Positions 9,792 through 51,570 of a DNA stretch of 64,000 nucleotides are shown one piece after another; positions within the stretch are counted from its first letter, which is position 1; each line of letters opens with the position of its first letter. The notes under the pieces were generated by a model, which was given only the letters and a program-made list of their open reading frames with translations, was not told where the DNA came from and searched no databases. Origin of the DNA: a virus. The stretch is from the UHGV virus genome UHGV-0390448; one strand, given 5' to 3'. The position numbers were made by a program, and so were the translations under genes.

Positions 9792-10594
9792 ATTGGCAGC
9801 CTCCTTTGACTAAGTTAAGGAGCTACCGCGTGAGGTTCCAATCTCAATGGCGGTAGCACTGACTGGGTTGGAACTACCGGCGTCAAAGGGAACCGGCCTG
9901 CCTTTCGGCAGCCCAGCCAGCACTACCATTGATCTCTGAGCTAAACGCTAAGTATGGCTGTGCGATGGCATGACACAAAAAAAGACGCTTTCGGCGTCTG
10001 TGTCGCCTTTGACATTATCCGGGGTTCCAATCCCGGCACCCGTTTTTCTAAGGTGCCGTAGAAATATACCCCACGATAATGCCTGGGCGCAACAGTCTGT
10101 ATTTTTATGCTTTGGAGGATTTCTTCCGGGCTTGTTTGCAAGCGTAGGCCATTGCTTTAGCTTTCACTTCATCCAGCTTTCCGGTGATCACTTCTTTTCC
10201 GAGAGTGACAAACCAGTCATAGCAACCGCCAGTGATGTTCTGGATTTGAAAGTTGAGGTAGCGAACGGTCATTTTGACACCCCCAGCGCGAGTAAAGAAT
10301 GCAGATTATCGCGTGAGTGGCGGACAATGAGTGATGGGGAAAGACAGTAGTTGTTCATAGTGTAGTGACTCCTTGCTTTCGGAGCCGCCATCGACTGTTC
10401 CACGGTCTGGTGGCGGCGCAATAAAGGCTGGAACACCGTGAGTCAACGGGGGCTTTTCAGCCACCTATATTGCACCGCCATTGGTATGGCGGCGGCAATC
10501 ATACGAAAAACCAAACGGTTTGTCTCAAAAAGTTGACCGGTGTACCAATCGGTTGTGAATGTACAACGGTGAATTTCACAATTCAACTTAAAAT

Positions 10595-35560: not shown

Positions 35561-35944
35561 CTACCAGCGGGATAAACGAACAACATGCTTAACTTTTGCC
35601 TCCCACTTCCCTTTATGTTTGTTGATCACCGCCTGCGCCATCTTCAGACTGGCTTCAAAATCGGCTTTTCGACCACTATTGCCCACCAGCAACGCTCCGT
35701 CTATTTCGGGTAAGCATAAGTAATCCTGCTCGACGGTAAGCGGCATTGATGATGTAACCTGGCAGGCTTTCCATCTGAAGCGTATGCGCACACTCCTGAC
35801 TGACATCACGACATAACCTGATATTGTGCTCTTGTGTCCGGCGTCTGTGCGTGTAGCCTTGCATGATGTTATCTTGCAGGTGATGATGTCCCAACCAATG
35901 TGCATCGCATCCTCAATGCGTAATTTAGTAGCCTCGTACATCAA
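35561..35944 (-). CDS. Hypothetical protein
   Basis: ORF only. Confidence 0.45.
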   Translation of the reverse strand: MMYEATKLRIEDAMHIGWDIITCKITSCKATRTDAGHKSTISGYVVMSVRSVRIRFRWKACQVTSSMPLTVEQDYLCLPEIDGALLVGNSGRKADFEASLKMAQAVINKHKGKWEAKVKHVVRLSRW

Positions 35945-36516
35945 AAAACCTCCCAGTCAGTAGCGATAATATCGACACCAGTTGCAAACCAGTCTGTCTG
36001 CGCCTGTAAATCCCCATTCATCATTACCAGGCGAGGCATAACCATCACATCACAACCTTCAACAATATCGAATGCCTCTTCCGGCAGGAATTCGACGAGC
36101 TTTTCTTTGCTGCCAACACTGCCACGGAGCATCGATATATAGCTCCCTTTAGGCCATGATGTTCGCCGGGCATCAAGCCCCTTCATCATCCAGTAAAAGG
36201 CCGATGAGAACGGGATGTTCTTTTTGGCGATGAGCACGTTATTCGCTTCTGTGTACTTCAGGAACTTAACTAACCTTACCATCGACTCGGATAACGCAAT
36301 GTACGGCTCATGATTGATTGCTGACACGCTTACGCCGTGCAGTCCAACACTTACCACTGTCATATCACCGTTCTGTGCGGTTTCGATGTTGACGCCTTTA
36401 CGAACTAACGCTGCATAAAGCTCCTCGCGCTTTTGCGTCCAGCATTCTCGTCGCCCTATAAAGTCACTCAAAACGAGATCATCTTCTGAATACGCGTTAT
36501 CGTTCGCCGTTAACAT
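35941..36516 (-). CDS. Hypothetical protein, possible DUF2829-like C-terminus
   Basis: C-terminal DWFATGVDIIATDWEVF. Confidence 0.45.
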   Translation of the reverse strand: MLTANDNAYSEDDLVLSDFIGRRECWTQKREELYAALVRKGVNIETAQNGDMTVVSVGLHGVSVSAINHEPYIALSESMVRLVKFLKYTEANNVLIAKKNIPFSSAFYWMMKGLDARRTSWPKGSYISMLRGSVGSKEKLVEFLPEEAFDIVEGCDVMVMPRLVMMNGDLQAQTDWFATGVDIIATDWEVF

Positions 36517-36970: not shown

Positions 36971-37046
36971 TGGTGGCCCCTACCGGACTTGAACCGGTGA
37001 CCGTGCGATTATGAGTCGCCCGCTCTAACCACTGAGCTAAAGGGCC
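36971..37046 (-). tRNA. tRNA with CAU anticodon, most similar to tRNA-Ile2 (lysidine type); Met not excluded
   Basis: Reverse complement GGCCCTTTAGCTCAGTGGTTAGAGCGGGCGACTCATAATCGC...GGTTCAAGTCCGGTAGGGGCCACCA resembles E. coli ileX; CCA encoded. Confidence 0.8.
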
Positions 37047-37063
37047 AGATTACTGTTAATTAC

Positions 37064-37192
37064 GCTTACGCTTTTTGCCAGAACCGCGTAAGGCTTTTGC
37101 CGCTTGCTCTACCCCGTATGCAACCACCAGCAGAAACAATAATGTCCACTCCGGGTTTTTATCGGCAAACGCCCAAAAATCCATCACTTGCA
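37064..37192 (-). CDS. Small membrane peptide (about 42 aa) inside the tRNA operon, candidate
   Basis: aaggtgg RBS 7 nt before ATG; predicted MDFWAFADKNPEWTLLFLLVVAYGVEQAAKALRGSGKKRKRN. Below the ORF-track cutoff. Confidence 0.4.
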
Positions 37193-37474
37193 GCCACCTT
37201 TTAAGACAAACGCCATTGCTGTTAGGTTGCGGTGCCGGGTGCCTCCCGGTGACGTTAACCAGTTAACAATTAACGCCGGATCACTTATGGATTCTCGTTA
37301 CGCCAGTAAAAAGACCACCTTTACTGTTTTAACTGTTCCGCGTGCGCTTAGCCGCATTCACCGCAATGGTAAGAGCATTTGGCTGACTGGGCGGCGATGA
37401 CGCCTGTACGCATTTGGTGATCCGGTTCTGCTTCCGGCATTCGCTTAATTAGCCAAATACTCTTAACGTTGCGA

Positions 37475-37561
37475 TGGCGGAGAGTAATGGAATCGAACCA
37501 TCATCGCTTGGGCGACGGGACGGTTTTCAAGACCGCTTGAGCACCATGCTCCCTACTCTCC
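37475..37561 (-). tRNA. Atypical type-II tRNA, Ser-like (UGA anticodon)
   Basis: Anticodon arm GCGGT-CTTGAAA-ACCGT as in E. coli serT, long variable arm, T-loop TTCGATT, CCA encoded; D-arm non-canonical. Confidence 0.5.
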
Positions 37562-37719
37562 AGTGATTGTGGTGGTCGGTGCTGATCTCCGACTGCGCCT
37601 CTTTTTTTCATAGCCCATAAGGCCGGTCAGTGCGCTTGATGACTGAGGCATCGATATTTACTACGCCGCCTCGTTGCCATAGGGCGGACTTGCGCGCCAG
37701 CAACGCGCATTCACCACAA

Positions 37720-37793
37720 CGGTAAGGGTACTTCGTAGGGATTCGAACCCTCTGCCAAGCACGGCGATCTCCGACGTCGCAAAATACCCTTAC
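37720..37793 (-). other. tRNA-like fragment: perfect T-arm inside a 10-bp inverted repeat, no acceptor pairing or CCA
   Basis: GGTAAGGGTA...AGGG-TTCGAAT-CCCT...TACCCTTACC on the minus strand; cannot be folded into a canonical cloverleaf. Confidence 0.3.
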
Positions 37794-37802
37794 CTGTTGT
37801 GT

Positions 37803-37878
37803 TGGTGCCGGTTAACGGACTCGAACCGCTGACATCCTGCTTACAAGGCAGGCGCTCTACCAACTGAGCTAAACCGGC
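37803..37878 (-). tRNA. tRNA-Thr (UGU)
   Basis: GCCGGTTTAGCTCAGTTGGTAGAGCGCCTGCCTTGTAAGCAGG...GGTTCGAGTCCGTTAACCGGCACCA; canonical cloverleaf. Confidence 0.85.
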
Positions 37879-37882
37879 AATT

Positions 37883-37969
37883 TGGTGGGGAGTGATGGAG
37901 TCGAACCATCCGAGTCGCAATGACAGTAGATTTACAGTCTACCCCGCTACCCCTACGGACTAACTCCCC
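37883..37969 (-). tRNA. Type-II tRNA, Tyr-like (GUA anticodon), atypical D-arm
   Basis: Anticodon arm GTAGA-CTGTAAA-TCTAC, long variable arm, T-arm GATGG-TTCGACT-CCATC, CCA encoded. Confidence 0.55.
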
Positions 37970-37974
37970 TAAAT

Positions 37975-38051
37975 TGGCGATGGTGGGTGGATTCGAACCA
38001 CCGACCGACAGCTTAGAAGGCTGCTGCTCTATCCTACTGAGCTACACCATC
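37975..38051 (-). tRNA. tRNA-Arg (UCU)
   Basis: GATGGTGTAGCTCAGTAGGATAGAGCAGCAGCCTTCTAAGCTG...GGTTCGAATCCACCCACCATCGCCA; resembles E. coli argU. Confidence 0.8.
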
Positions 38052-39366
38052 ACTTGCCGGGTACGTCTCCGGCGAGGGCTTCCACCTCCGTATGCTTTTC
38101 GGCGCACCGCGCCCTGGCTGCAATTCGGTAACAGGGGATACACAACCCTGGCTTCCAGCGTGATTAGCGCCTTCAGCATGACGGGATATACCCGTTACAA
38201 GACATTATTCCAGAAAGCCATTAACCAATGGCTGTTACGCGGGAAGGACGTAACAGGTAAGGGCGCTGACCAGAAAGACCTGACCCTTCTCATTCATCTG
38301 GTTAATCACACCGGCGCCCTTGCCTGTTATGCCTCCCCGTTCCCTAATACACAGACGGGGACACTCTGCGGTCGATTTTTTGACGGGGGACGACTCATAC
38401 CCCGTGGCGTCAGGCTTCTTAGGCCGCTACCATCATCAGATCATCGTTTGCATTTACTTTAATGGTCGGGTTCTAAACCGCCGCAAAGTCGCTAACCATG
38501 ACGAAAACACTGAAAAAACACCCACCCGAAGGTGGGCAAATATCCCACTCGCGGTATTGCCACTTAGGCGTATGGTCAACCTGGCAACTCGGTGTCCTCA
38601 ACGGGGAAGGAATAACCCCGCCATACTTACCGCCGCGCCTGTCGCGGTTATCGCTACGTATCAACATAAAAGCCGACTGCCTGAGCAAGATTCACTTTCA
38701 AAGGCCCGCAGAAAGGAATCCATAGTCGGCTTTTATCTTGAAGCGGCTCTCTCTCCGCCCGTCACCGTCCTATCCCGGTTGTCGCGTTTGCCACGCCAGC
38801 CGTAACGAGGTTTAAAGTCTTTTCACGTTTTCATCACTCGACTGCCGTCTATGGCTGTTCGTTGCAGCGGGGGTGCCTCCCCCTGGGGATATCCCCGGCC
38901 TTACCCCCATTCTTTCAAAACACAATGCAAGGCCACATCCGCATAGGTGCATTACCGCAACGTTAAGGAGACTCAGAGTCAGCAAAATAAGAGGAAAACC
39001 CAACTCTGCGCCTCCTTAACGTTGAGGATGTGCACTGATGATGACCCGATGCAGCCTGGCCCACTTAACATACTCACTGCCAGATCATCATCAATGAACA
39101 CCTTAAAAAGACCTTCCGTGGCTCAAGTCACTGTCGTTTACTCCGTAAAATGCTCTCGCTGAAACCACTTTACGCACTAAACCTGCCGGGCATGTATTTG
39201 CACGGTGCCGGAGCTTTCCCTTACCTTAAAATTTACTTTCTAACACTTAAGTTTGTTTGATGCTGGTGGGGGAAGACAATGAAGTGACTATCAAACCCGC
39301 AAGCGACATGGGAAGCTCCCCACCAGCACGAAAAATTCTATGTTAAGTTAATTCCATAATCAACAT
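38052..39366 (-). other. About 1.3-kb ORF-free, inverted-repeat-rich region between the tRNA cluster and an operator site; candidate transcribed leader or structured ncRNA
   Basis: Only short, overlapping, low-complexity ORFs in all frames; long-range inverted repeats, e.g. acgttaaggag/ctccttaacgt (about 38959-39022), tgatgatga/tcatcatca (about 39036-39095), aaaagccgact/agtcggctttt (about 38670-38733). Confidence 0.25.
39238..39244. promoter_or_regulatory. ttctaac half-site
   Basis: tttactttctaacacttaag. Confidence 0.3.
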
Positions 39367-39394
39367 GTTAGAAAGATAATTTTAGTTTTCTAAC
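39367..39394. promoter_or_regulatory. Operator site gttagaa-N14-ttctaac
   Basis: atgttagaaagataattttagttttctaacac; between the 3' end of 39398-40606 and the ORF-free region; positioned to control minus-strand transcription into the tRNA cluster. Confidence 0.55.
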
Positions 39395-39397
39395 ACA

Positions 39398-51240: not shown

Positions 51241-51570
51241 AGTTACGGCCTCACTAACAGGTTTAACAACCTGCTACCCGCTGCTAAACAGGTGGCAGGA
51301 CGTGACGGGGTTAGCAGACTGGCGTTAGTGAAACCAGCAGGCCGAAGCCTCCCCATCACGCCCCACCATAATTTGGGCGTAACGCGGTTTTACGGACACA
51401 AAAATACCGCAATATCGGATATCTGCGGTTGTCCGCACTAACATTCAGGCTGCTAAACCCGGTCGCAGAATTTGCTACGACGGCATGAATATAAGCCTGA
51501 ACATTAGAAAGATCAACAGAATTTTTATCAGATGCTGTTTTTTAGTGACGATATAAATCATACATTCTTG

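Follow-up and report, generated by a model that had tools for sequence, protein, structure and literature searches.

Phage tRNAs have been described in two settings that bear on the locus treated here, a tRNA gene cluster in UHGV virus genome UHGV-0390448, of which a 64,000-nucleotide (nt) stretch, called the window below, was analysed. The first is the (8/4) tRNA-Ser, defined and reported in phages by Mukai et al. 2017 (NAR 45:2776, PMC5389517). The class was described from metagenomes, the examples being metagenomic phages (macroalgal surface, alpha-proteobacterial phages), proteobacteria and rumen Clostridia; work on it has mostly treated it as a synthetic-biology chassis. In E. coli, 8/4 and 9/3 allo-tRNAs are folded, processed, charged and delivered by EF-Tu, and most of the allo-tRNAs in that work carry non-serine anticodons. 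The second is phage tRNA-Tyr. The T5/SP15 tRNA-Tyr rescues phage from retron-Eco7 PtuAB, mutants of its anticodon or stems failing to do so (Azam et al. 2024, PMC11555353), and the authors conclude that the protein-synthesis role of the SP15 molecule is essential. Septu PtuAB cuts the variable loop of the host tRNA-Tyr, and an extra T6 tRNA-Tyr rescues infection (2026 SegB/Septu study, PMC13096335). Both translation and rescue from PtuAB have been demonstrated for the tRNA-Tyr of T5, SP15, KpP_HS106 and T6 (PMC11555353, PMC13096335).

The window is a P1/D6-type phage-plasmid of E. coli. ARAGORN found exactly five tRNA genes in it, all on the minus strand (Table 1), at precisely the coordinates proposed by a sequence-only reading of this DNA, which had placed five minus-strand tRNAs within 1.1 kb. 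That reading called the Thr, Arg and CAU tRNAs canonical, as their RF00005 scores bear out, and gave the Ser-like and Tyr-like species anticodon arms, long variable arms, T-arms and an encoded CCA, all of which ARAGORN and Rfam reproduce. CCA is encoded by five of the five genes. The 1.1-kb segment is most probably a variable tRNA cassette region whose five elongator tRNAs are processed and charged by the host and serve phage translation. Both of its unusual architectures have published precedents and neither is a new kind of tRNA.

Table 1. Features of the tRNA cluster and its surroundings (MFE, minimum free energy; ORF, open reading frame)
Feature	Position	Strand	Description	Evidence
tRNA-Arg (UCU)	37975-38051	minus	reads AGA; canonical cloverleaf; encoded CCA	ARAGORN; RF00005 72.1 bits
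tRNA-Tyr (GUA)	37883-37969	minus	type II, 7/5 fold, A73, CCA	ARAGORN; RF00005 43.8 bits; MFE; covariation
tRNA-Thr (UGU)	37803-37878	minus	canonical; 99% identity to P1 trnT	ARAGORN; RF00005 74.9 bits
Hairpin H1	37690-37802	minus	long near-perfect inverted repeat enclosing T-arm-like GAGGGUUCGAAUCCCUA	MFE -52.4 kcal/mol; blastn
tRNA-Ser (UGA)	37475-37561	minus	8/4 architecture	ARAGORN; Rfam tRNA-Sec 45.7 bits; covariation
Hairpin H2	37360-37474	minus	long near-perfect inverted repeat directly after tRNA-Ser	MFE -44 kcal/mol
STnc100-like RNA element	37171-37386	minus		Rfam RF02076 40.9 bits, below cut-off 47, E=5.8e-7 on 2 kb
Small ORF, 43 aa	37056-37187	minus	MMDFWAFADKNPEWTLLFLLVVAYGVEQAAKALRGSGKKRKRN; between Ser and Ile2 genes	hypothetical in pEC361_3
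tRNA, CAU anticodon	36971-37046	minus		ARAGORN (labelled Met); RF00005 66.7 bits; PGAP tRNA-Ile
Tad2-like (Thoeris anti-defence 2) ORF	35941-36516	minus		Pfam PF11195, 40.4 bits, cut-off 25
Counterpart of P1 'dicF-like region'	38507-38608	minus	ends in strong intrinsic terminator, 38519-38538

The gathering score of RF00005 was passed by the Thr, Arg, CAU and Tyr genes, the last clearing a threshold of 29 bits with E=5e-6 over the window and with a 2-nt insertion after position 9. The Ser-like gene had no RF00005 match at the gathering score; under relaxed thresholds its best Rfam model was tRNA-Sec RF01852 (cut-off 47 bits; E=1.8e-7 on 2 kb). RefSeq (PGAP) and GenBank annotations of homologous records served as a proxy for tRNAscan-SE, and the tRNAscan-SE-based RefSeq annotation has, at the homologous positions, a tRNA-Tyr together with a tRNA-Ser or a 'tRNA-OTHER'; ARAGORN and these calls thus agree with a tRNA of the proposed anticodon at each of the two unusual loci. 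The CAU gene, at 99% identity to P1 trnI, is therefore tRNA-Ile2, not tRNA-Met; a tRNA-Ile2 with CAU reads AUA once lysidine-modified.

Fold and relatives of the tRNA-Ser (UGA)

In the Ser gene an 8-bp acceptor stem (5' strand 37554-37561, 3' strand 37479-37486) is followed, after G9 and G10, by the D hairpin GAGCA-UGG-UGCUC (37539-37551), which has a 5-bp stem (6 bp counting G10-A24) and a 3-nt loop; A8 stands in place of U8. The anticodon lies at 37527-37529. The 18-nt variable region holds a 6-bp stem, CGUCGC/GCGAUG, with loop CCAA (37502-37517), and the T arm has a 4-bp stem and the loop UUCGAUU (37487-37501), after which come G73 and CCA. The sequence-only reading had found no canonical fold for the D-arms of this gene and of the Tyr gene. 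Both do depart from the canonical layout, but both fold, in another register.

BLAST found close relatives of the gene in rV5-like Vequintavirus phages (89% identity, 91 nt), in which the D loop is one base and the variable arm three bases longer, and distant ones in Klebsiella Sugarland-type, Pantoea and Streptomyces phages. Many more came from two scans of IMG/VR with degenerate patterns, and 64 distinct relatives were aligned. The family layout begins GGARRGU, A8 (or G8) and G9, followed by a D stem of 5-6 bp with a loop of 3-4 nt containing GG, then by AA, a 5-bp anticodon stem and a variable region of 14-23 nt; the 3' part consists of a 4-bp T stem, the loop UUCGAUU, U65 (or C65), the 3' acceptor strand and G73 or U73. 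The window gene has a 3-nt D loop, where rV5-type and many further relatives have 4 nt. When the 8/4 model was laid on this alignment, 97.8% of cells were paired, against 74.7% in shuffled alignments and at most 50.5% with the partners slid, and each of the four core D-stem pairs showed 18-35 changes on both sides.

The gene could alternatively encode a 7/5 tRNA with an odd D arm, in which G49 and U65 form a wobble pair and A8 stays unpaired; this would still be a working serine tRNA. ARAGORN draws the gene in this way, and the standard 49:65 pair is possible in 57 of the 64 relatives (G-U in 48, A-U in 6, G-C in 3). That pair, however, shows no both-side change and is broken in the other seven, whereas 8:65 is A-U in 57 and G-C in six, all six changed on both sides, and is unpaired in one. 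Base 49 instead closes, on the 3' side, a variable stem of 4 bp or longer in 54 of the 64, where it covaries with the 5' base of that stem (C-G in 43, U-A in 9, G-C in 2; C45-G60 in tRNA coordinates in the window). Position 8, a near-universal U in tRNAs, is A or G in the whole family, and in the MFE fold the acceptor stem runs beyond 7 bp. A 7/5 form of the gene is unlikely on these grounds. Two points weigh against the 8/4 reading: the six G8-C65 sequences possibly represent just two or three independent events, and G49 and U65 of the window's own sequence could also pair, as in the 7/5 fold. A C-U mismatch in the D stem of the D6 copy also speaks against this account of the gene. A 9/3 fold, suggested by MFE, was ruled out, the T-stem pair 50:64 being fully paired and covarying in the family (A-U in 59, G-C in 4, U-A in 1).

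On its predicted fold, then, the Ser gene is a member of the (8/4) tRNA-Ser class (Mukai et al. 2017). An A8-U65 pair would give it an acceptor stem of 8 bp and a T stem of 4 bp while keeping the 12-bp branch read by EF-Tu; its D arm would form a compact Sec-like hairpin, and the 6-bp variable stem would abut the T stem.

All 64 anticodons are of the serine type NGA (UGA in 52, CGA in 7, GGA in 4, AGA in 1); the first letter takes all four bases and the other two are invariant, a pattern that argues for a decoding tRNA and not a decoy or relic. The T loop, U33 and the anticodon, apart from its first base in the Ser family, are likewise invariant in both the Ser and the Tyr family. The discriminator is G in 44 relatives, U in 19 and A in one. 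E. coli SerRS recognizes the long variable arm, G73, G2-C71 and A3-U70 (Normanly 1992; Asahara 1994). The window gene keeps G1-C72, G2-C71, A3-U70, G73 and a 6-bp variable stem, and so should be serylated and should read UCA and UCG.

The best Rfam score, the Sec-like 8-bp acceptor stem and the compact D arm might be taken to mean a selenocysteine-type tRNA, or a recoding or suppressor tRNA such as the allo-tRNAs, most of which have non-serine anticodons. The anticodon is UGA, not UCA, with NGA in every one of the relatives; the acceptor/T branch has 12 bp, against 13 bp in bacterial tRNA-Sec; and the score stays under the cut-off. The identity of the gene as tRNA-Sec was rejected on anticodon, branch length and score, and a selenocysteine or recoding role is hardly credible. 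Given its Sec-like body, the 8/4 tRNA-Ser might nevertheless interact with SelA.

The Ser and Tyr genes could also be pseudogenes in decay, or scars of recombination, that persist as passengers of a variable region. In favour of this are the failure of the Ser gene against RF00005 and its uneven annotation: PGAP labels it tRNA-Ser in most plasmids and 'tRNA-OTHER' in some, pEC361_3 and E2863 among them, which counts against an intact serine tRNA. The D6 record notes an 'apparent UGA Serine anticodon but AA not called by tRNAscan-SE', and the P7 record (AF503408.1) has no annotation at 72257-72343, where a copy of the 8/4 gene lies at 96.6% identity. The D-stem mismatch in D6 points the same way. 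Against it, pairing reaches 97.8% in the helices of the Ser family and 99.7% in those of the Tyr family, and compensatory changes are numerous among these phages of enterobacteria, Pantoea, Streptomyces and Enterococcus; the T loop, U33 and, with the exception noted above, the anticodon are invariant; and the genes are kept at 93-100% identity in hundreds of E. coli plasmids. Decay is thus very improbable. The evidence favours Ser and Tyr genes that are intact, not pseudogene-like, and that probably specify functional, divergent phage tRNAs. The 8/4 fold explains why pipelines disagree on the Ser gene (tRNA-Ser, tRNA-OTHER or unannotated). The genes annotated as tRNA-Ser or tRNA-OTHER in D6, in rV5-like phages and in hundreds of E. 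coli phage-plasmids, and the P7 copy, are by the same structural argument to be read as 8/4 tRNAs, a modestly new identification.

Fold and relatives of the tRNA-Tyr (GUA)

The Tyr gene has U8 and A9, then two extra unpaired bases, GU (37959-37960), and then a D arm made of a 4-bp stem, CCGU/GCGG, and a 7-nt loop, AGGGGUA (37944-37958). Its anticodon is at 37933-37935 and its variable arm has a 3-bp stem with the loop AUUGC (37914-37924). MFE folding of the window sequence gives this structure as well.

Relatives of this gene occur in more than 1,500 phage records, among T4-like, rV5-like, FelixO1-like, T5-like and Enterococcus phages. The window gene has 92% identity to the rV5 type, 91% to the T4 type and about 79% to the T5 type. 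Among 53 distinct sequences every type-II member has U8 and A9 followed by two or three extra bases (GU, UC, UU, UA, GA, AU, AA, AC, UUU, AUU or GUA), and the D arm of the family is a 4-bp stem, N-N-G-U/G-C-N-N, with a 7-8 nt loop, A-R-R-(U)-G-G-U-A. On 31 relatives the cloverleaf left 99.7% of cells paired, with both-side changes in 19 of 24 pairs. Pairing was complete (100%) in the acceptor stem of 7 bp and the T stem of 5 bp, and both variable D-stem pairs covary (CC/GG, GC/GC, CG/CG, CU/AG, UC/GA).

Two other pairings were tried and discarded. The canonical D-stem register (10-12 with 23-25) produces G-G and C-C clashes, and slid partners are 44-51% paired. Pairing of the last extra base with position 26 is inconsistent among the relatives (U-G, U-A, C-U, U-U, A-C), and the extra bases were therefore treated as unpaired.

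The identity features of TyrRS are the anticodon GUA, A73, G1-C72 and a long variable arm, and the window gene keeps all of them. It is best described as a 7/5 tRNA whose D stem-loop would lie two bases further 3' than in the host tRNA-Tyr.

Origin, roles and surroundings of the cluster

The genes of the cluster resemble those of different phages. Tyr (92%) and Ser (89%) are of rV5 type and Thr and Ile2 (99%) of P1 type, while Arg has just 71% identity to the rV5 Arg gene. The cluster of rV5-like phages runs Arg-Tyr-Ser-(OTHER)-Thr-Met-Pro. P1 (NC_005856) has trnA (Asn), trnT (Thr) and trnI (Ile2), and shares with the window the upstream dicF-like region and the hairpin after trnT; unlike the window, it has Asn in place of Arg and Tyr and lacks the Ser gene. 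Other combinations are found on P1-like E. coli plasmids, including Asn-Thr-Ile, Ser-Thr-Asn and Arg-Tyr-Thr-Ser-Ile. Among 5,426 complete E. coli genomes the Ser gene was present in 330 and the Tyr gene in 232, the carriers almost always being plasmids of 90-115 kb.

Hairpin H1 directly follows tRNA-Thr, and blastn places it at the same position after trnT in P1 and D6. At 90% identity, the sequence after tRNA-Ser in rV5-like phages matches the inner 60 nt of H2. The 3' end of H2 (CUUACCAUUGCGGUGAAUGCG) is homologous to that of H1, both ends having the form …CUUACC-R-UUG-Y-GGUGAAUGCG. The two hairpins look like cassette boundaries or RNase III-type processing sites. Since the H1 flank follows trnT in P1 and D6 and the H2 flank follows the Ser gene in rV5-like phages, the arrangement points to cassettes of gene plus flank that may have been exchanged between virulent and temperate phages, which is modestly new.

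The rV5-like Escherichia phage ime has, between its Ser and Thr genes, a 98-nt 'tRNA-OTHER' (L006:789-886) that does not occur in the window. Its D stem of 6 bp is capped by a tetraloop, its anticodon loop is UUUUUAA and its variable region is very long; it looks like an allo-tRNA-like species with a non-serine anticodon. Homology of H1 to this gene was considered and none was convincing. In P1 the plp 'putative lipoprotein' ORF (L003:3350-3727), on the opposite strand, overlaps trnT and H1 and may be spurious.

Codon use in the window was compared with that of ordinary K-12 genes, the ORFs of both being called by one procedure. AUA was 4.4-fold, AGA 2.9-fold, ACA 2.3-fold and UCA 1.5-fold more frequent in the window (p 0.003 to 1e-16). 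Tyr codons were 1.27-fold more frequent, with an unchanged split between UAU and UAC. Codon supply thus explains the Ile2, Arg and Thr genes well, the Ser gene modestly and the Tyr gene poorly. The first three tRNAs, and more weakly tRNA-Ser, would supply codons far commoner in the phage than in its host. Against a cluster that serves translation throughout are the modest enrichment of UCA, the Tyr codons, so little enriched that codon supply fails to explain the gene, and the K-12 control, which comprised about 8,900 codons from one chromosomal region.

For tRNA-Tyr, an anti-defence role by replacement or supplement is a better inference than codon supply, because of the PtuAB and Septu results and the nearby Tad2-like ORF. 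The molecule would mainly replace or supplement host tRNA-Tyr under tRNA-cutting defences such as PtuAB/Septu. Two findings tell against a protected molecule: the T6 tRNA-Tyr is itself cut by Septu, at C48 (PMC13096335), and the T4-like tRNA-Tyr sampled, that of phage Pu-Krd-SF7, has the same variable arm as the window gene. With this arm shared and the T6 molecule cut, the window tRNA-Tyr may itself lack resistance to the nuclease, and any rescue would then come from dosage.

The sequence-only reading had left open whether the two unusual genes are functional divergent tRNAs or decoys. As decoys, they would serve mainly as sponges for tRNA-targeting nucleases or other tRNA-binding host factors, and the near-absent enrichment of Tyr codons agrees with this. 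On the other side, rescue by the tRNA-Tyr of SP15, of the T5 family, needs an intact anticodon and intact stems (PMC11555353). Both families keep full synthetase identity sets, CCA ends and the invariant anticodon positions, and the first anticodon base of the Ser family varies within serine anticodons only, as decoding predicts. We consider it distinctly improbable that decoy activity is the main role of both genes; a pure decoy role is unlikely, though less firmly so for Tyr. The compensatory changes, the kept identity elements and the working relatives favour the first of the two options.

More speculatively, the odd shapes themselves could be adaptive. The exchanged cassettes of gene and hairpin, by the Tad2 gene, would then form an anti-defence islet whose tRNAs are unrecognisable to host tRNA-targeting effectors; we hold this unlikely. 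The partners in exchange may be virulent phages of rV5, T4 and T5 types and temperate phage-plasmids of P1/D6 type. The effectors that tRNA-Tyr faces may be PtuAB/Septu or colicin-E5-type nucleases, and the 8/4 form of tRNA-Ser, without U8 and a normal D loop, may evade a putative tRNA-Ser-directed effector.

What the analysis demonstrates are the genes, their relatives, the covariation behind their folds and the codon bias; expression and charging of the window tRNAs, and the anti-defence role of tRNA-Tyr, we infer. A simple scan found no promoter directly upstream of the tRNA genes, which weighs against expression; a sigma-70-like site is present at 39335-39363. With a view to the regulation of the cluster, the P1 C1 operator was sought over the whole window, without a match at up to three mismatches.

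The 1.7 kb around the cluster show 97% identity to E. coli plasmid pEC361_3 and 90% to phage D6; matches of this query to P7 and P1 are partial (70% and 56% covered, respectively, at about 87-88% identity). The genes flanking the cluster are those for the PacA terminase subunit, the late-promoter activator Lpa, the Tad2-like protein and a PmgS-like protein. Lpa, recognized through Pfam, adjoins the cluster, and the pacA ORF was named via homology to the annotation of pEC361_3 and D6. The order of these genes is as in D6, unlike P1. The tRNA cluster is followed, about 450 bp downstream, by the Tad2-like ORF, whose homologue in pEC361_3 is annotated as a Tad2 family protein. The 43-codon ORF between the Ser and Ile2 genes lies where P1 has tciC and specifies a hydrophobic peptide with a KKRKRN tail, for which Pfam gave no match. 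Leading into it is the sub-cut-off match to STnc100, a Salmonella small RNA family.

Upstream of the cluster, a 1.3-kb stretch (38052-39397) contains no credible ORF, and 38052-38650 is 87% identical to P1. The terminator of the dicF-like region has the form GCCCACC-UUCG-GGUGGG followed by a U run; the region scored under threshold with the Rfam DicF model. About 60 nt after the terminator, a minus-strand block (38419-38475) contains GCA AAC GAU GAU CUG AUG AUG GUA GCG GCC UAA. The encoded tag-like ORF, ANDDLMMVAA* (38419-38451), resembles the tag of transfer-messenger RNA (tmRNA), which in E. coli is ANDENYALAA. This 54-nt tag-like block is 100% invariant in nine distinct P1-like relatives, in which the flanks vary, and it scored 24 bits with the Rfam tmRNA_permuted model (cut-off 47). 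ARAGORN at default settings found no tmRNA in the window, and its permissive calls were noise.

Elsewhere in the window Rfam detected P1-type C4 antisense RNAs, at two minus-strand loci, 9846-10056 and 51288-51494 (77 and 70 bits). One has an adjacent isrK-like RNA and the other a c4-a1b1 target element, which suggests two immI-type regulatory modules within one element.

Comparison with known tRNAs

The window tRNA-Ser agrees with the (8/4) tRNA-Ser (PMC5389517) in its 8-bp acceptor and 4-bp T stems, its long Sec-like D stem with a tiny loop, its long variable arm, G73 or U73 and a serine anticodon; as there, the gene sits in a phage tRNA cluster and is a near-miss of the tRNA-Sec covariance model. 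It differs in its 3-nt D loop and its ordinary 5-bp anticodon stem, the allo-tRNA consensus having an anticodon stem longer than canonical and Y20 in the D loop. In the window D loop the base after GG is U, apparently paired with A15. With bacterial tRNA-Sec (selC, RF01852) it shares the 8-bp acceptor stem, a D stem of 5-6 bp closed by a small loop, the long variable arm, G73 and the enzyme expected to charge it, SerRS. It departs from tRNA-Sec in an anticodon, UGA, that reads serine codons (UCA in tRNA-Sec), in a T stem of 4 bp, not 5, with the branch of the EF-Tu type and not the SelB type, and in its score below the Rfam gathering cut-off.

Reference sequences for the host tRNA-Ser (UGA), serT, and tRNA-Tyr were verified. 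The product of serT has the same anticodon loop (CUUGAAA), G1-C72, G2-C71, A3-U70, G73, long variable arm and CCA; unlike the window tRNA-Ser it carries U8, its branch is 7/5 and its D stem, of 3 bp, encloses a large loop, and the two align poorly outside the anticodon arm. The host tRNA-Tyr (tyrT/tyrV/tyrU) is, like that of the phage, of type II with GUA, A73 and G1-C72, and the stretch from position 8 to 26 has 20 nt in both. In the host molecule a 3-bp D stem directly follows U8-U9 and encloses a large loop, and the variable loop is AUC (GUC-AUC-GAC). The phage molecule has the two extra bases, a 4-bp D stem with U13-G22, the 7-nt loop and the variable loop AUUGC. In effect, its predicted D hairpin is shifted two bases 3'-ward and has a smaller loop.

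The tRNA-Tyr of phages T5, SP15 and T6 belongs to the same family as that of the window, with which it shares the connector insertion, GUA, A73 and G1-C72, and the variable arm GUC-AUUGC-GAC is that of T5-like and T4-like genes. The T5/T6-type genes lie in virulent phages with a large tRNA-rich region, the window gene in a temperate phage-plasmid; no SegB homing endonuclease was seen beside the latter. The conserved connector insertion is a modestly new point for this anti-defence family, and is not discussed in the main text of PMC11555353 or PMC13096335. The window gene would extend the account of tRNA versus nuclease in T5 and T6 to temperate phage-plasmids. As for the 8/4 class, the main text of PMC5389517 names neither enterobacterial phages nor P1, D6, P7 or rV5; natural members can now be placed in tractable, classical E. 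coli phages (D6, P7, rV5-like), as well as in some 6% of the complete E. coli genomes, so that the natural function of a tRNA described from metagenomes becomes directly testable in standard strains.

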